The notes under the pieces were generated by a model. The model worked only from the letters and a program-made list of their open reading frames with translations. It had not been told where the DNA came from and searched no databases. A stretch of 23,852 nucleotides of DNA. Origin: a virus. Lineage: Duplodnaviria; Heunggongvirae; Uroviricota; Caudoviricetes. Location of the stretch: IMG/VR virus record IMGVR_UViG_2585427740_000001; one strand, 5' to 3'. Positions 4,978 to 20,831 of this stretch are shown in pieces; within the stretch, counting starts at the first letter, position 1; each line of letters begins with the position of its first letter. The translations under genes and the position numbers were made by a program.

Positions 4978-5229
4978 TCACGCTGCTCGTTGAGTTTTGA
5001 TTTTTGCTGTCTCCAGCTCAACACGCAGTTTCCTCACCGTTAGCGCAATATCCTCGTTCTCCTGGTCGCGGCGTTTGATGTACTGCTGGTTTCTTTCCCG
5101 TTCATCCAGCAGTGTCAGCACAATCGATGGTGTTACCAGCTCATGGAAAAGGTCCGCGTCAAATCCCCAGTTGTCATGCATTGCCTGCTCTGCCGCTTCA
5201 CGCAGTGCCTGAGAGTGAATTACGCTCAC
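4978..5229 (-). CDS. Hypothetical coiled-coil protein (83 aa to the first stop); the frame continues for 53 more codons after an in-frame TGA (to TAG at 4816-4818)
   Basis: GTG start overlaps the stop of the upstream TraR-like gene (GTGA overlap). Downstream region 4816-4977 is open in the same frame but has no start codon of its own. Confidence 0.5.
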   Translation of the reverse strand: MSVIHSQALREAAEQAMHDNWGFDADLFHELVTPSIVLTLLDERERNQQYIKRRDQENEDIALTVRKLRVELETAKIKTQRAA

Positions 5230-5447
5230 TTCGAACCTCTCTGTTTACTGATAAGTTCCAGATCCTCCTGGCAACTTGCACAAGTCCGACAACCCTGAAC
5301 GGCCAGGCGTCTTCGTTCATCTATCGGATCGCCACACTCACAACAATGAGTGGCAGATATAGCCTGGTGGTTCAGGCGGCGCATTTTTATTGCTGTGTTG
5401 CGCTGTAATTCTTCAATTTCTGATGCTGAATCAATGATGTCTGCCAT
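5226..5447 (-). CDS. TraR/DksA-family C4 zinc-finger protein (phage-encoded RNA polymerase-binding regulator family)
   Basis: 73-aa ORF with CxxC...CxxC spacing (CCECGDPID...CRTCASC) typical of the TraR/DksA C4 zinc finger. Confidence 0.8.
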   Translation of the reverse strand: MADIIDSASEIEELQRNTAIKMRRLNHQAISATHCCECGDPIDERRRLAVQGCRTCASCQEDLELISKQRGSK

Positions 5448-5545
5448 CTTTCATTAATCCCTGAATTGTTGGTTAATACGCTTGAGGGTGAATGCGAATA
5501 ATAAAAAAGGAGCCTGTAGCTCCCTGATGATTTTGCTTTTCATGT

Positions 5546-5761
5546 TCACCGTTCCTTAAAAACGCCGTTTAACATGCCGATTGCTAGACTTAAATGAGTC
5601 GGTGTGAATCCCATCAGCGTTACCGTTTCGCGGTGCTTCTTCAGTACGCTACGGCAAATGTCATCGACGTTTTTATCCGGAAACTGCTGTCTGGCTTTTT
5701 TGATTTCAGAATTAGCCTGACGGGCAATGCTGCGAAGGGCGTTTTCCTGCTGAGGTGTCAC
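5546..5761 (-). CDS. Hypothetical small protein (71 aa from GTG 5761; alternatively 93 aa from ATG 5827)
   Basis: ORF-track ORF 5546-5827. The GTG at 5761 overlaps the TGA of the upstream 27-aa peptide ORF (GTGA), suggesting coupling. The N-terminal 22 residues of the longer form look like out-of-frame translation of the peptide gene. Confidence 0.5.
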   Translation of the reverse strand: MTPQQENALRSIARQANSEIKKARQQFPDKNVDDICRSVLKKHRETVTLMGFTPTHLSLAIGMLNGVFKER

Positions 5762-5841
5762 TGAACAAGCCCCATGTCGGCAAGCATAAGCACACAGAAT
5801 ATGAAGCCCGCTGCCAGAAAAATGCATTCAGTGGTTGTCAT
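5758..5841 (-). CDS. Candidate 27-aa hydrophobic (single transmembrane) peptide MTTTECIFLAAGFIFCVLMLADMGLVQ
   Basis: ATG overlaps the TGA stop of the upstream 63-aa ORF (ATGA). Hydrophobic core of about 17 residues. Found by hand translation; below ORF-track cutoff. Confidence 0.35.
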   Translation of the reverse strand: MTTTECIFLAAGFIFCVLMLADMGLVQ

Positions 5842-6029
5842 ACCTGGTCTCTCTCATCTGCTTCTGCTTTCGCCACCATCATTTCCAGTTTTTGTGAAAG
5901 GGATGTGGCTAACGTATGAAATTCTTCGTCTGTTTCTACTGGTATTGGCACAAACCTGATTCCAATTTGAGCAAGGCTATGTGCCATCTCGATACTCGTT
6001 CTTAACTCAACAGGAGATGCTTTGTGCAT
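5838..6029 (-). CDS. Hypothetical protein, 63 aa, immediately downstream of exo in the leftward operon
   Basis: ORF with GAGG 6-8 nt upstream of ATG; same strand and spacing as the early-left operon genes. Confidence 0.55.
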   Translation of the reverse strand: MHKASPVELRTSIEMAHSLAQIGIRFVPIPVETDEEFHTLATSLSQKLEMMVAKAEADERDQV

Positions 6030-6180
6030 ACAGCCCCTCGTTTATTATTTATCTCCTCAGCCAGCCGCTGTGCTTTCAGTGGATTTCGGATAACAGAAAG
6101 GCCGGGAAATACCCAGCCTCGCTTTGTAACGGAGTAGACGAAAGTGATTGCGCCTACCCGGATATTATCGTGAGGATGCG

Positions 6181-6861
6181 TCATCGCCATTGCTCCCCAA
6201 ATACAAAACCAATTTCAGCCAGTGCCTCGTCCATTTTTTCGATGAACACCGGCACCATCTCGTCAAAACTCGCCATGTACTTTTCATCCCGCTCAACCAC
6301 GACATAATGCAGTCCTTCACGCTTCATACGCGGGTCATAGTTGGCAAAGTACCAGGCATCTTTTCGTGTCACCCACATGCTGTACTGCACCTGGGCCATG
6401 TAAGCCGACTTTATGGCCTCGAAACCACCGAGCCGGAACTTCATGAAATCCCGGGAGGTAAACGGGCATTTCAGCTCAAGGCCATTGCCGTCACTGCATA
6501 AACCATCGGGAGAGCAGGCGGTGCGCATACTTTCGTCGCGATAGATGATCGGGGATTCAGTAACATTCACGCCGGAAGTGAATTCAAACAGGGTTCTGGC
6601 GTCGTTCTCGTACTGTTTTCCCCATGCCAGCGCCTTAGCATTAACTTCCGGAGCCACACCGGTGCAAACCTCAGCCAGCAGGGTGTGGAAGTAGGACATT
6701 TTCATGTCAGGCCACTTCTTTCCTGAGCGGGGCTTGGCTATCACGTTGTGAACTTCTGAAGCGGTGATGACGCCGAGCCGTAATTTGTGCCATGCATCAT
6801 CCCCCTGTTCGACAGCTCTCACGTCGATCCCGGTACGCTGCAGGATAATGTCCGGTGTCAT
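6181..6861 (-). CDS. exo: Lambda exonuclease (Red-alpha)
   Basis: 226-aa translation ([30 protein letters not shown]...) matches lambda Exo as recalled. Confidence 0.97.
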
Positions 6862-7306
6862 GCTGCCACCTTCTGCTCAGTGGCTTTCTGTTTCAGGAAT
6901 CCAAGAGCTTTCACTGCTTCGGCCTGTGTCAGTTCTGACGATGCGCGAATGTCGCGGCGAAATATCTGGGAACAGAGCGGCAATAAGTCGTCATCCCATG
7001 TTTTGTCCAGGGCAATCAGCAGAGTGTTAATCTCCTGCATGGTTTCATCGTTAACCGGAGTAATGTCGCGTTCCGGCTGACGTTCTGCGGTGTATGCGGT
7101 ATTTTCGACAATGCGCTCGGCTTCATCCTTGTCATAGATACCAGCAAATCCGAAGGCCAGACGGGCACACTGAATCATGGCTTTATGCCGTAACATCCGT
7201 TTGGGATGCGACTGCCACGGCCCCGTAATTTCTCTGCCTTCGCGGGTTTTGAATGGTTCGCGGCGGCATTCATCCATCCATTCGGTAACGCAGATCGGAT
7301 GATTAC
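6858..7306 (-). pseudogene. bet: bet (Red-beta), 5'-truncated: only the C-terminal ~145 codons remain
   Basis: Translation from ...NHPICVTEWMDECRREPFKTREGREITGPWQSHPKRMLRH... to the C-terminus matches lambda Bet as recalled. The N-terminal ~115 codons are absent and the frame runs into ren-derived sequence on the opposite strand. Confidence 0.88.
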
Positions 7307-7426
7307 CGGTTCGCTACCAGGGAAGAACGGGAAGGAAAGGTGAGCACGAATCTGATTTTCAAGGAGTGTCGCCAGAGTGCCGCGATGAAGCGGGTGTTGG
7401 CATTTTATCGCGGCAATTTTCAATAG
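7304..7426 (+). pseudogene. ren: ren 3' fragment (last ~40 codons: YRFATREEREGKVSTNLIFKECRQSAAMKRVLAFYRGNFQ*)
   Basis: Plus-strand frame matches the recalled C-terminus of lambda Ren (...YYRFATREEREGKMSTNLVFKECRQSAAMKRVLAVYGVKR). It begins abruptly at the bet breakpoint. Confidence 0.7.
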
Positions 7427-7463
7427 ACTATGTACATAAAAATATCATTTTTTTAATACATGT

Positions 7464-7655
7464 CTAATTATTGGACGAAATTGGTTTTTGCTTTGGTTTA
7501 GTTAGCCTAGCAATCAAGCCAGAGGCAATAATGATGATCCAAGCAATTTGATGCAATGCTACTCCAATATAAGAACCTTTATAGATAATAAAGGCATAGA
7601 TCGCTAGAAACGAAATAAATATCCATAACGAAAGTTGATAAATTTTGGCGCGCAT
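7464..7655 (-). CDS. Possible small two-helix membrane protein (63 aa) in AT-rich insert
   Basis: ORF with two hydrophobic stretches; no convincing RBS; AT-rich DNA can yield spurious ORFs. Confidence 0.3.
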   Translation of the reverse strand: MRAKIYQLSLWIFISFLAIYAFIIYKGSYIGVALHQIAWIIIIASGLIARLTKPKQKPISSNN

Positions 7656-7911
7656 ATTTAATCCAATCAATCAGAAAGACGAGTAATCATAGAGGTACTA
7701 TCACCCGGGTAACTATTGCTATTATGAACGGATAGGATAGAGGCTTCAATAACATATGCATCAAGTATGATGGAATATGTAGGTGAAAATGACTTGTGTC
7801 AAATTTGTGGAAATGAGTACCATGTTTCTCTGAAATTGATGTCGTTAATGGCTAGTGATAGTGAACTTTTTTACTTTATAATTCCTTTGGTTATAACAAT
7901 AAGGTAAATTT

Positions 7912-8472
7912 ATGAAGAAGATAATATTATTAGCCATGATTATTGGTTCTTTAACAGGTTGCGCTAGTGTGCCACCATTGAATTTTTCAACACCTAACGT
8001 GGGAGTTAGCCAGAAAAAAATAGATGCTGAAATTAAGTCATTAACGGTATCACTTGCTCGTCCAGATGAGCAGAAAGGGGATATCACTGCTGGTATGGAG
8101 GCTATAACTCCAATTTGGCGTGAATCTTTGCAGGAAGCACTCGACCGAATGACTATTTTTCGTGATAGTTCACCAAATACGGTTAGCTTAAATGTTAAAG
8201 TGTTGGCTCTTGACGTTCCTGCTTTTGGTGTTTCAATGACAACTAAAGCAATTGCAAGGTATGAAATAATCAACCGTGCGAATGGTGATATTATATATAC
8301 GCAGGATATTGAGTCTACCGGTACTGTTCCAGCCAGTTACGCATTCTACGGTATTGTTCGAGCACGCGAATCTGTTAATCGCGCGGTGCAAAACAACATA
8401 ACGCAGTTCTTGCAAGCATTAGAAAGTGTTGATCTTTCTCGTCCAATGTTTCCTGTTAGGGTAGCTAAATGA
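7912..8472 (+). CDS. Lipoprotein, 186 aa (signal peptide with lipobox LTGC); function unknown
   Basis: MKKIILLAMIIGSLTGCAS... lipobox; AAGG RBS about 9 nt upstream. Stop overlaps the start of the next gene (ATGA). Confidence 0.8.
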   Translation: MKKIILLAMIIGSLTGCASVPPLNFSTPNVGVSQKKIDAEIKSLTVSLARPDEQKGDITAGMEAITPIWRESLQEALDRMTIFRDSSPNTVSLNVKVLALDVPAFGVSMTTKAIARYEIINRANGDIIYTQDIESTGTVPASYAFYGIVRARESVNRAVQNNITQFLQALESVDLSRPMFPVRVAK

Positions 8473-17286: not shown

Positions 17287-20250
17287 ATGGCAGTAAAGAT
17301 TTCAGGTGTACTGAAAGACGGCACAGGAAAACCGGTACAGAACTGCACAATCCAGCTGAAAGCAAAACGTAACAGCACCGCGGTGGTGGTGAACACGCTG
17401 GCCTCAGAAAATCCGGATGAAGCCGGGCGTTACAGCATGGACGTTGAGTACGGTCAGTACAGCGTTATTCTGTTGGTGGAAGGATTCCCGCCGTCACATG
17501 CCGGGACCATCACCGTGTATGAAGATTCCCGACCCGGTACGCTGAATGATTTTCTCGGTGCCATGACGGAGGATGATGCCCGTCCGGAGGCTCTGCGCCG
17601 TTTTGAACTGATGGTGGAAGAGGTGGCGCGTAACGCGTCCGCAGTGGCACAGAACACGGCAGCCGCGAAGAAGTCAGCCAGTGATGCCAGCACATCTGCC
17701 AGTGAGGCGGCAACTCATACAACCGATGCTGCAGGCTCAGCTCGTGCCGCCAGCACGTCAGCCGGACAGGCTGCATCATCTGCTCAGTCAGCATCTTCCA
17801 GCGCAGGAACGGCATCAACAAAGGCCAGTGAAGCATCGAAAAGTGCTGCTGCTGCAGAGTCCTCAAAAAGCGCGGCAGCTACCAGTGCCGCTGCGGCGAA
17901 AACGTCAGAAACGAATGCGGCAGCGTCACAACAATCAGCAGCCACTTCTGCATCCGCCGCGACCACGAAGGCGTCAGAAGCTGCCACCTCAGCCCGGGAT
18001 GCGGCGGCCTCAAAAGAGGCGGCAAAATCATCAGAAACGAGCGCAGCCTCGAGCGCCAGTAGTGCAGCCTCCTCGGCAACAGCGGCAGGAAATTCCGCGA
18101 AGGCGGCAAAAACGTCCGAGACGAACGCTAAGTCTTCTGAGACGGCAGCAGCACAGAGTGCCTCCGCAGCAGCAGACTCAAAAACAGCGGCTGCCTCATC
18201 TGCCAGCGCCGCGTCAACAAATGCCGGGCAGGCCTCAGCCAGTGCCACCGCTGCCGGAAAGTCGGCAGAAAGCGCCGCATCATCCGCTTCAACAGCCACA
18301 ACGAAGGCTGGCGAAGCCACTGAACAGGCCACGGCAGCAGCGAGGTCAGCTTCCGCAGCGAAGACATCCGAAACGAACGCGAAAGCGTCGGAAACCAGCG
18401 CAGAATCCTCAAAAACGGCTGCCGCATCGTCAGCCAGTTCGGCGGCGTCATCGGCATCATCGGCGTCTGCTTCAAAAGATGAGGCGACCAGACAGGCGTC
18501 AGCAGCGAAGGGCAGCGCCACGACGGCATCCACGAAGGCGACAGAGGCAGCTGGCAGTGCGACGGCGGCAGCTCAGAGCAAAAGTACGGCGGAATCCGCG
18601 GCAACGCGCGCCGAGACAGCAGCAAAACGGGCAGAGGATATTGCATCCGCCGTGGCGCTTGAGGATGCGAGCACGACGAAAAAGGGGATAGTACAGCTCA
18701 GCAGTGCGACTAACAGCACTTCCGAGTCACTGGCGGCAACGCCAAAAGCCGTTAAGGCCGCGTATGAGCTGGCTAACGGGAAATACACCGCACAGGATGC
18801 AACGACAGCACAGAAAGGGATAGTTCAGCTTAGCAACGCGACCAACAGCACATCTGAAATGCTGGCGGCAACGCCAAAGTCGGTAAAGGCAGCCTATGAC
18901 CTTGCTAACGGGAAATATACTGCTCAGGACGCTACGACAGCACAAAAAGGAATTGTCCAGCTCAGTAGTGCAACCAACAGCGCATCTGAAACGCTTGCCG
19001 CGACACCGAAAGCAGTGAAAGCAGCTAATGATAATGCGAATGGTCGGGTACCTTCTGCCCGTAAGGTGAATGGTAAGGCGCTTTCAGCGGATATAACACT
19101 GACGCCGAAAGATATTGGTACGCTTAACTCAACAACAATGTCATTCAGCGGTGGTGCTGGTTGGTTCAAATTAGCAACGGTAACCATGCCACAGGCGAGT
19201 TCTGTTGTTTCAATTACGTTGATTGGTGGCGCGGGATTTAACGTGGGGTCACCTCAACAGGCAGGTATATCTGAACTTGTTTTGCGTGCAGGTAATGGTA
19301 ATCCGAAGGGGATTACTGGTGCTTTATGGCAGCGCACATCGACAGGGTTTACAAATTTTGCCTGGGTCAATACATCTGGTGATACTTACGATATTTACGT
19401 TGCAATCGGAAATTATGCGACTGGTGTAAATATTCAATGGGATTATACCAGTAATGCCAGCGTGACGATTCATACGTCACCAGCATATTCTGCTAATAAG
19501 CCGGAAGGGTTAACGGACGGTACAGTTTATTCACTCTATACGCCATCAGAGCAGTTTTATCCGCCTGGCGCACCAATCCCGTGGCCATCAGATACCGTTC
19601 CGTCTGGCTATGCCCTGATGCAGGGGCAGACTTTTGACAAATCTGCATACCCGAAACTTGCAGCCGCTTATCCGTCAGCCGTGATCCCTGATATGCGTGG
19701 CTGGACGATTAAGGGCAACCCCGCCAGTGGTCGTGCCGTATTGTCTCAGGAACAGGACGGCATTAAATCGCACACCCACAGCGCCAGCGCATCCAGTACG
19801 GATTTGGGGACGAAAAACACATCGTCGTTTGATTACGGAACCAAATCCACGAATAACACCGGGGCGCATACCCATAGTATTAGCGGGACTGCAAATAGTG
19901 CCGGTGCGCACCAACACAAGAGTTCCGGTGCATTTGGTGGCACGAACACGAGCATTTTCCCTAATGGTTATACCGCGATTTCAAATCTAAGCGCGGGGAT
20001 TATGAGCACAACAAGCGGTAGTGGCCAGACTCGTAATGCAGGGAAGACATCATCAGATGGTGCTCATACCCACTCGCTGTCCGGCACTGCTGCAAGCGCA
20101 GGCGCACATGCACATACTGTCGGTATTGGTGCTCATACGCACTCCGTTGCGATTGGCTCACACGGACACACCATCACCGTTAACGCTGCTGGTAACGCGG
20201 AAAACACCGTCAAAAACATCGCATTTAACTATATTGTGAGGCTTGCATAA
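17287..20250 (+). CDS. stf: Side tail fibre protein Stf (about 987 aa from ATG 17287), with long Ala/Ser/Thr-rich low-complexity region, three ~43-aa tandem repeats and a His-rich C-terminal domain
   Basis: N-terminus [30 protein letters not shown]... and C-terminus ...[11 protein letters not shown] match lambda Stf as recalled. ORF-track ORF begins 2 codons upstream at GTG. Confidence 0.92.
18673..19050 (+). repeat. Three tandem ~129-132-nt repeats inside stf (unit encodes [19 protein letters not shown](S/M)[12 protein letters not shown](E/D)[11 protein letters not shown])
   Basis: Repeated peptide and nucleotide blocks starting near 18673, 18802 and 18934, read directly. Confidence 0.8.
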
Positions 20251-20831
20251 TGGCATTCAGAATGAGTGAACAACCACGGACCATAAAAATTTATAATCTG
20301 CTGGCCGGAACTAATGAATTTATTGGTGAAGGTGATGCATATATTCCGCCTCATACAGGTCTGCCAGCAAACAGTACCGATATTGCACCGCCAGATATTC
20401 CGGCTGGCTTCGTGGCTGTTTTCAACAGTGATGAGTCATCGTGGCATCTTGTTGAAGACCATCGGGGTAAAACAGTTTATGACGTGGCATCAGGGGACGC
20501 GTTATTTATTTCTGAACTCGGCTCATTACCGGAAAATGTTACCTGGTTATCCCCGGAAGGGGAGTTTCAGAAGTGGAACGGCACAGCCTGGGTGAAGGAT
20601 ACGGAAGCAGAAAAACTGTTCCGGATCCGGGAGGTGGAAGAAACAAAAAACAGCCTGATGCAGGTAGCCAGTGAGCATATAGCGCCGCTTCAGGATGCTG
20701 TGGATCTGGAGATCGCAACGGAGGAAGAAACCTTGTTGCTGGAAGCCTGGAAAAAGTATCGGGTATTGCTGAACCGTGTTGATACGTCAACTGCACAGGA
20801 TATTGAATGGCCAGTAGCACCTATAGGGTAA
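20250..20831 (+). CDS. tfa: Tail fibre assembly chaperone Tfa
   Basis: 193-aa translation [51 protein letters not shown]... matches lambda Tfa as recalled. ATG overlaps the stf stop. Confidence 0.95.

Follow-up and report, generated by a model that had tools for sequence, protein, structure and literature searches.

A candidate membrane peptide gene between orf63 and orf61 within the exo-xis segment of lambda-family phages

Among temperate phages, lambda serves as the reference. Its exo-xis region, which is under study by the Wegrzyn and Donaldson laboratories, is being taken apart gene by gene, as it shifts the lysis-lysogeny balance in Shiga-toxin (Stx) phages. The present analysis concerns a 27-codon open reading frame (ORF) with the product MTTTECIFLAAGFIFCVLMLADMGLVQ, located on the minus strand (5758..5841) of a viral DNA of 23,852 nucleotides (nt), IMG/VR record IMGVR_UViG_2585427740_000001 (the whole stretch is hereafter termed the window). 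The region around this ORF corresponds to exo-xis of lambda, as window positions 5400-6200 share 98.4% identity with lambda 30566-31367 and 95-99% identity with 180 phage records, mostly lambda relatives and Stx phages. Taken as a whole, the data are best explained if the ORF is a true small gene that phages of the lambda family carry wedged between orf63 and orf61, a reading to which we give a probability of roughly 0.7, and our best guess is that its product is an early-expressed, translationally coupled inner-membrane peptide.

The closest described entity is lambda orf61 as annotated (NP_040613.1, 61 amino acids (aa); vb_24B_7c of Phi24B, 93 aa; PHROG 26061 and 303), which occupies the same DNA and the same early-left transcript as the peptide ORF, but is read in another frame and yields another product; in the present proposal the gene is split into a 27-aa hydrophobic peptide and a 71-aa helical core. 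KdpF, AcrZ, MgtS, MgrB and PmrR, which are single-helix inner-membrane proteins of enterobacteria modulating larger membrane proteins, resemble the peptide in being shorter than 50 aa, in containing one apolar segment of helix length and in being missed by gene callers. Unlike them, the peptide is phage-encoded and operon-internal and has no basic flanks, and there is no sequence relationship between the two. Type I toxins (TisB, 29 aa; DinQ, 27 aa; ShoB, 26 aa; Ibs; Hok) are alike in size and hydrophobic character, whereas the peptide lacks basic residues, an identifiable antisense RNA and a promoter or leader of its own, and is coupled to its neighbours. Lambda Kil, a 47-aa FtsZ inhibitor from the same pL operon, is likewise a small early-left product and acts on the host; however, Kil is not known to be a membrane helix, the peptide gives no match to the Pfam family Lambda_Kil, and kil lies between cIII and gam, in a stretch deleted from the window.

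Coupling and conservation of the 27-codon ORF

Both ends of the ORF overlap a neighbouring gene, and the elements concerned are as follows.

5838..6029, minus strand: orf63, 63 aa, DUF1382, the upstream link of the coupled chain (Pfam PF07131, E = 3e-31; lambda annotation).
5849..5855, minus strand: GAGAGAG, a weak Shine-Dalgarno (SD)-like element 7 nt 5' of the peptide ATG (anti-SD duplex -5.6 kcal/mol).
5838..5841, minus strand: ATGA, where the peptide start overlaps the orf63 stop; also the mosaic junction (orf63 ends CAG GTA TGA; ATG = 5841-5839).
5758..5841, minus strand: candidate small membrane peptide gene, 27 codons, ATG start, MTTTECIFLAAGFIFCVLMLADMGLVQ (ORF list; identical peptide in lambda).
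5758..5761, minus strand: GTGA, where the peptide stop (TGA 5760-5758) overlaps the start of the 71-aa Orf61 core (peptide ends GTT CAG TGA; GTG = 5761-5759).

An earlier sequence-only reading of the window had proposed a small hydrophobic-peptide gene whose ATG overlaps the stop of a 63-aa ORF as ATGA and whose stop overlaps a GTG opening the downstream ORF as GTGA. Both overlaps are found on the minus strand, at 5841-5838 and 5761-5758, respectively, and the GTG (5761-5759) is in frame with the 93-aa ORF 5546..5827, giving a 71-aa product. The candidate gene and its joining by start-stop overlaps therefore stand, while the locus had not been recognised as lambda exo-xis, nor its flanks as orf63 and orf61, nor this copy as decayed. 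As possible roles of the product, that reading had named a toxin, a Kil-like division inhibitor and an exclusion factor. Among relatives, the start codon of the Orf61 core is ATG in about 270 loci (lambda included) and GTG in about 40, and the overlapping starts and stops form a chain consisting of orf63, ATGA, peptide, (A/G)TGA, orf61 (71 aa), (A/G)TGA and a 31-aa ORF. In three different contexts the peptide ATG overlaps the stop of the gene before it; outside the context of the window, the SD sequence is GGGAGG or GGAGG. The calculated anti-SD duplexes are -5.6 kcal/mol for the peptide ATG, -4.7 for the 71-aa start and -3.8 for the ATG of the 93-aa form, the weakest of the starts compared. 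Programmed -1 frameshifting that would carry ribosomes out of the peptide frame and into that of orf61 was rejected: the two frames are related by -1, but inspection found no in-phase X_XXY_YYZ slippery site, and the T5 run is out of phase.

Twenty-six random internal codons of window composition are open 24% of the time, and the chance origin of an open frame with both 4-base overlaps is estimated at roughly 1-2%, which is unlikely, not impossible. Since the arrangement alone could arise by chance, the case for a peptide gene rests on comparison with related sequences. Among 336 related segments gathered from annotated records, IMG/VR and metagenomes, the 84 bases are present without gaps in 300, as 32 DNA haplotypes. 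An identical peptide is encoded by 259 of these 300 loci; only 26 have the consensus DNA, and 233 differ from it solely by silent changes. The 84 bases hold 27 distinct changes, 14 silent and 13 replacement in the peptide frame, corresponding to a ratio of nonsynonymous to synonymous polymorphism (pN/pS) of 0.27 (binomial P = 7e-4), the best of the six frames; P becomes 0.0017-0.0036 with transitions weighted 2-4 fold and stays <=0.004 across bias 1-4. Third codon positions of the peptide frame hold 15 of the 27 changes, and the six common variants are all silent in this frame (P about 1-3e-4), while the replacements are all rare (<=10 loci each). Over the same overlap, the 93-aa frame shows 6 silent and 21 replacement changes (pN/pS 0.91, P = 0.49), and the third sense frame also gives 0.91. 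The flanking genes, analyzed by the same method as controls, give 0.37 for the 71-aa orf61 (P = 1e-4) and 0.62 for orf63 (P = 0.095); by this measure the peptide frame is constrained no less strongly than these accepted neighbours.

The ORF is intact in about 300 loci, the sole disruptions seen being a 14-nt deletion in L007 and a deletion in L248, and four loci end one codon early. The orf63-to-orf61 segment with the peptide ORF occurs in about 3,270 of the 5,426 complete Escherichia coli genomes, and the copies in such genomes number roughly 4,400. The sequence-only reading had allowed for the opposite pattern, a conserved 93-aa frame beside a peptide frame free of purifying selection, and what is observed is the reverse (pN/pS 0.91 and 0.27, respectively); the conservation in related prophages that it had looked for is present, as the counts of intact and identical copies indicate. 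In about 22 haplotypes a Dam-type methylase takes the place of orf63, and homology with the window begins exactly at the peptide ATG (5841); there the methylase TGA overlaps the peptide ATG as ATGA, with GGGAGG 6 nt upstream. As the edge of homology falls at the peptide ATG, the peptide and orf61 travel as one mosaic module bounded by the peptide start.

Small ORFs also occur at this position in Yersinia phages. In phage vB_YenM_210.17 (L115), a 31-codon ORF, MKRKISDGAWFWIYLIGYTVAATLYIVSNAG, fills the gap between the methyltransferase and the orf61 homologue, with its ATG overlapping the methyltransferase stop (ATGA) and its stop 4 nt before the orf61 start. Twenty-one of the 36 Yersinia-type loci (L359-L394, about 600-700 in each) carry either this type, Y1 (MKRKISDGAWFWIYLIGYTVAATLYIVSNAG), or the unrelated Y2 (MDALSFVMAYLDWILLIVGGGVAFWLLWVKEW), both 29-33 aa long with one apolar helix and with pairwise pN/pS of 0.44 (Y1) and 0.29 (Y2). 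Y1 and Y2 have no PHROG match and are unannotated in the one annotated Yersinia phage record inspected. They share with the E. coli peptide the slot directly 5' of an orf61-family gene, a similar length, a single apolar helix and constraint, but have no detectable similarity to it (one further variant was compared, otherwise by inspection), contain basic and Trp residues at the ends of the helix and stop 4 nt before the orf61 start instead of overlapping it. At least three unrelated small single-helix ORFs thus occupy the slot 5' of orf61-family genes, a recurrence which may reflect functional pairing or may mean that the junction is merely tolerant of small inserted genes. In L376 (about 595-705), the orf61 homologue has GTA in place of the usual GTG start, and this start is overlapped by a single-helix ORF of 36 aa.

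These comparisons bear on the alternative that the ORF is translated only as a relay, passing ribosomes from orf63 (or Dam) to the orf61 start, while the peptide itself is functionless and degraded. The overlaps at both ends, the weak SD sequence at the orf61 start (a GTG in the window) and the finding that Klebsiella-type and Enterobacter relatives reach the same coupling without an intervening ORF would suit such a role. However, a relay needs an open frame only, and yet the peptide is identical in 259 of 300 loci with pN/pS 0.27; the unrelated Yersinia peptides in this slot share hydrophobic character, a comparable length and constraint; and lambda retains the peptide intact and unchanged although its Orf61 is frameshifted. 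A relay without a functional peptide is thus considered unlikely.

Extent of the orf61 gene

If the ORF is a gene, the start of the annotated orf61 is misdrawn, and the segments concerned are as follows.

5546..5761, minus strand: true Orf61 core gene, 71 aa, RefSeq WP_000188870.1 (RefSeq 216-nt calls; distant homologues; pN/pS 0.37; AlphaFold).
5762..5827, minus strand: N-terminal extension of the 93-aa orf61 (ATG 5827), probably not a real coding segment (out of frame with the peptide; pN/pS 0.91; weakest SD sequence; predicted local distance difference test score (pLDDT) 44-57).
5696..5701, minus strand: A6 run inside orf61, A7 in lambda (alignment with lambda; L001, about 1800).

GenBank phage records call a 282-nt (93-aa) ORF, whereas in the closest E. 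coli genomes RefSeq has a gene of 216 nt (71 aa) and leaves a 76-nt "intergenic" gap exactly at the peptide ORF. The 71-aa form matches positions 23-93 of PHROG 303. Residue 1 of this form is also where the alignments with distant Orf61 homologues all begin; these homologues are 29-47% identical and come from phages of Klebsiella, Yersinia, Vibrio, Erwinia and Enterobacter. Loci with distant homologues were searched for with single-protein queries. In the AlphaFold model of the 93-aa form, the mean pLDDT is 44 for residues 1-10, 57 for residues 11-20 and 84-93 for residues 31-80, being high only from about residue 23; Orf61 has likewise been modelled consistently only over residues 24-93 (PMC8614690). 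On the basis of RefSeq, the distant homologues, AlphaFold, the SD sequences and the mosaic junction, the real Orf61 start is the codon overlapping the peptide stop. The possibility that the peptide forms part of the conserved Orf61 protein (PHROG 303) was ruled out, as the distant homologues lack the N-terminal 22 residues and the peptide is in another frame.

The lambda orf61 annotation (30839-31024, 61 aa) is in the same frame as the 93-aa ORF of the window, and this frame runs further upstream in lambda, which has GGA at the position of the window's TGA. The peptide ORF (lambda 30928-31008) lies wholly within the annotated orf61 in the other frame and encodes a peptide identical to that of the window; the three bases that differ inside it (ACT/ACG, GGG/GGA, CAG/CAA) are all silent in the peptide frame, while in the orf61 frame they alter a residue, a stop or a start codon. 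The extra A in lambda frameshifts the Orf61 core (ATG at lambda 30931) after 22 residues and so shortens it from 71 to 29 aa. A6 is present in the window and in nearly all natural relatives, and the 71-aa form dominates outside lambda (174 loci from IMG/VR, 93 from metagenomes). By this reading the annotated orf61, with its 61 aa in lambda and 93 aa in Stx phages, would be an artefact in which the peptide gene, read out of frame, is fused to the real Orf61.

Some contigs gathered with the relatives need separate mention. L008-L021 and other genome contigs (Shewanella, Bradyrhizobium, Paenibacillus, Kitasatospora, Oceanobacillus and others) match lambda with 100% identity at the protein level, carry the lambda orf61 frameshift and are often about 48 kb long or of low coverage; these matches in unrelated assemblies most likely represent library contamination with lambda DNA and are of no use for measuring divergence. 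In one E. coli assembly (L468, 1-600), an IS66-family transposase is inserted in the region of the peptide ORF and yields a 100-aa 'Orf61' variant (P0024), which was ruled out as a genuine variant because it is an IS66 insertion junction.

The conventional view, in which the annotated 93-aa Orf61 (ATG 5827) is the real gene and the 27-codon ORF a chance overlapping frame without useful translation, agrees with the 282-nt ORF being called in all GenBank phage records, with the 93-aa frame being open in every locus examined and with the L007 deletion, which puts an upstream ATG in the orf61 frame. However, pN/pS in the 93-aa frame is 0.91 over the overlap, where every common variant alters an amino acid, and the N-terminus is not conserved, as a TGA directly precedes ATG 5827 in many loci (the window and the alignment consensus among them) and lambda reads through at that position. 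Its SD sequence is the weakest of those compared and its pLDDT is low, RefSeq and the distant homologues start at the 71-aa position, and the mosaic junction falls at the peptide ATG and not at ATG 5827. This view is therefore judged quite improbable.

The peptide has been missed by reference annotation because it is located inside the start of the annotated orf61, and since the ORF is shorter than the usual length cut-offs it is skipped by standard gene callers. It is unannotated in the lambda, Stx-phage and RefSeq E. coli records inspected, while some E. coli submissions to GenBank list the exact peptide as a hypothetical protein (e.g. ETI79567.1; UniRef A0A0A2SGE8), and it was seen on 981 contigs. 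A literature search including full text for the peptide sequence found no paper mentioning it. The peptide has thus been predicted before only as an anonymous hypothetical protein and is otherwise an uncharacterised member of the small hydrophobic peptides of phages and bacteria.

Character of the peptide and points against the proposal

The 27-aa peptide has a grand average of hydropathy of 1.62, and its Kyte-Doolittle maxima are 2.33 over 19 residues (7-25; usual threshold 1.6) and 2.42 over 21 residues. It contains one apolar stretch, residues 6-26, which is long enough to span a bilayer (about 18-21 residues) and has D22 inside it. Searches with the peptide retrieved no Pfam family at E <= 1, Lambda_Kil included, which gives no support to membership of the Kil family; NCBIfam and PHROG gave one chance match each (E = 0.034 and E = 0.68, respectively). 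In the phage collection searched with tblastn, the peptide is found only in E. coli-type phages at >=92.6% identity, without deep homologues.

RNA folding around the ORF gives a minimum free energy no better than that of shuffled sequences (z = +1.04), so attenuation-type leader hairpins, and with them the leader-peptide reading, are not supported. No Rfam family was found at the peptide ORF, promoter-like sites on both strands are at chance level (1 found, 1.4 expected), and in the folding and promoter analyses no sign of an antisense-RNA toxin arrangement appeared around it. These results bear on the idea that the peptide is a membrane-depolarising type I toxin of the TisB, DinQ and ShoB kind, restrained by an antisense RNA. 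Size and hydrophobicity do resemble those toxins, but the ORF lies inside a tightly packed operon as an internal cistron and has neither its own promoter nor a long leader, the promoter-like count, the folding score and Rfam give no hint of a regulatory RNA, and the basic residues typical of such toxins are absent, all of which makes this identity very unlikely. The view of the 84 bases as non-coding, either a spacer or an RNA element with an incidental open frame, has nothing but the shortness of the ORF in its favour and is scarcely credible, as the third positions of the peptide frame account for 15 of the 27 changes, the operon is packed throughout with overlapping genes, and the RNA-element version is ruled out by a structure that is neither stable nor conserved, folding no better than shuffled sequences, and by the lack of an Rfam family.

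Several observations weigh against a functional membrane peptide gene. The peptide contains no K, R or H and offers no tryptic site, its sole charged side chains being E5 and D22; the apolar stretch thus lacks the basic flanks of the positive-inside rule, which is uncommon in a membrane helix of stable orientation. No match in Pfam, NCBIfam or PHROG points to a function. The selection test rests on 27 changes, the divergence is shallow (94-99% identity across the whole family, which occurs in E. coli-type phages only), and one antisense frame with common third positions also scores low (pN/pS 0.38, P = 0.014), as is expected for a shadow frame, its signal being weaker than that of the peptide frame. 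In L007 (Escherichia sp. E1V33, about 1380-1445), the 14-nt deletion fuses the peptide ATG to the orf61 frame, and as the 93-aa frame is open in all loci sampled, it may serve as a minor longer isoform. Some E. coli prophages and phage SfI have an orf61 with another N-terminus (MTIEHNN...) directly after an unrelated gene and no peptide, and Klebsiella-type phages, without exception, and Enterobacter phages couple an upstream methylase stop directly to the orf61 start; to judge from these genomes, the peptide is dispensable for orf61. Finally, a review citing the lambda ribosome-profiling study names as extra ORFs of this region only one of 7 aa and one of 31 aa (PMC8614690).

State of the prophage, putative action and significance

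The remaining features around the peptide gene in the window are as follows.

6181-6861, minus strand: exo (lambda annotation / ORF list).
6002-6190, minus strand: orf60a (lambda annotation / ORF list).
5454..5549, minus strand: 31-codon ORF, MNMKSKIIRELQAPFLLFAFTLKRINQQFRD, with a GTG start overlapping the stop of orf61 (GTGA; in lambda, ATGA) (ORF list).
5507..5525, minus strand: terminator-like hairpin with T-run, inside the 31-codon ORF (agrees with the predicted t2 terminator).
5226-5447, minus strand: orf73/TraR (lambda annotation / ORF list).
Minus strand, listed after orf73/TraR: Ea22 fragment.

The 31-codon ORF is probably the 31-aa 'orf2313' that PMC8614690 attributes to lambda ribosome profiling, and the predicted t2 terminator has been placed between orf61 and orf73 (PMC4195576). 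The prophage is integrated at the lambda attachment site next to ybhC (1-1284), with int at 1419-2489. Its bet gene is reduced to the C-terminal 139 residues (6858-7277, minus strand; RecT positions 145-195), and immunity and replication genes are absent after this remnant, the stretch from gam to the replication genes (N, cI, cro, O, P) being missing; the prophage is thus decayed and defective. As the immunity/pL region and the N-terminus of bet are lost, the normal early-left promoter is missing from the window copy. With the early promoter region gone, the peptide gene in the window is probably silent and would not be expressed in the normal way.

Three other places in the window deserve mention. 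At 7277-7912, the left arm of the lambda-like prophage abuts DLP12-like nin/Q/lysis genes. At 7464-7670 (minus strand) lies a 68-aa ORF with two long apolar stretches, MIGLNMRAKIYQLSLWIFISFLAIYAFIIYKGSYIGVALHQIAWIIIIASGLIARLTKPKQKPISSNN, which has no Pfam match and may be a further unannotated small membrane protein; a related RefSeq genome has no coding sequence in the stretch judged to correspond (offsets approximate). At 20593-20791 (plus strand), a full-length Rfam IS009 match (218 bits, E = 1e-53) falls within a 193-aa ORF (20250-20831) located 3' of the tail-fibre gene.

For intact relatives, a mechanism can be proposed, whose steps are given in order of decreasing confidence. Ribosomes ending orf63 (or the Dam methylase in other phages) would restart at the overlapping ATG on the early-left (pL) transcript. 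Termination of the peptide at (A/G)TGA would help to load ribosomes on the weakly signalled start of the 71-aa Orf61. The peptide would insert into the inner membrane and, lastly, might bind or disturb a host membrane component early in infection, accounting for part of the pro-lytic effects credited to "orf61". Three sets of published data are compatible with these steps as circumstantial evidence and are not proof of them. Ribosome footprints, reported without assignment to a frame, cover the annotated orf61 region. In the published orf61 deletions the annotated ORF was replaced in its entirety, whereby most of the peptide gene was lost as well. Infection with the exo-xis deletion of Phi24B leaves htpX and degP lower than infection with the wild type does, by 2.4 and 3.0 log2, respectively; both are typical reporters of envelope or inner-membrane protein stress. 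In addition, Orf61 expressed as annotated forms insoluble aggregates, as would be expected if the construct carries a non-native, Cys-rich N-terminal extension.

Since Orf61 is frameshifted in lambda, the lambda "orf61" phenotypes are candidates for effects of the peptide. It is possible, though doubtful, that the peptide and not Orf61 is the effector behind at least these phenotypes, and that it represents a class of membrane peptides recruited independently beside Orf61-family genes (E. coli, Y1 and Y2).

The interest of the peptide comes mainly from its position inside a misdrawn lambda/Stx-phage gene which has already been the subject of mutational and structural studies. If "orf61" is two genes, the published orf61 deletions and frameshifts also destroyed an unrecognised peptide gene, and the structural and protein-interaction work used a probably non-native Orf61 N-terminus, which may explain the aggregation. 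In lambda, where the core is frameshifted, the peptide may then be the sole intact product of the segment. If the recurrent recruitment is true, it would point to a functional pairing of a membrane peptide with a small helical cytoplasmic protein in the lysis-lysogeny decision.

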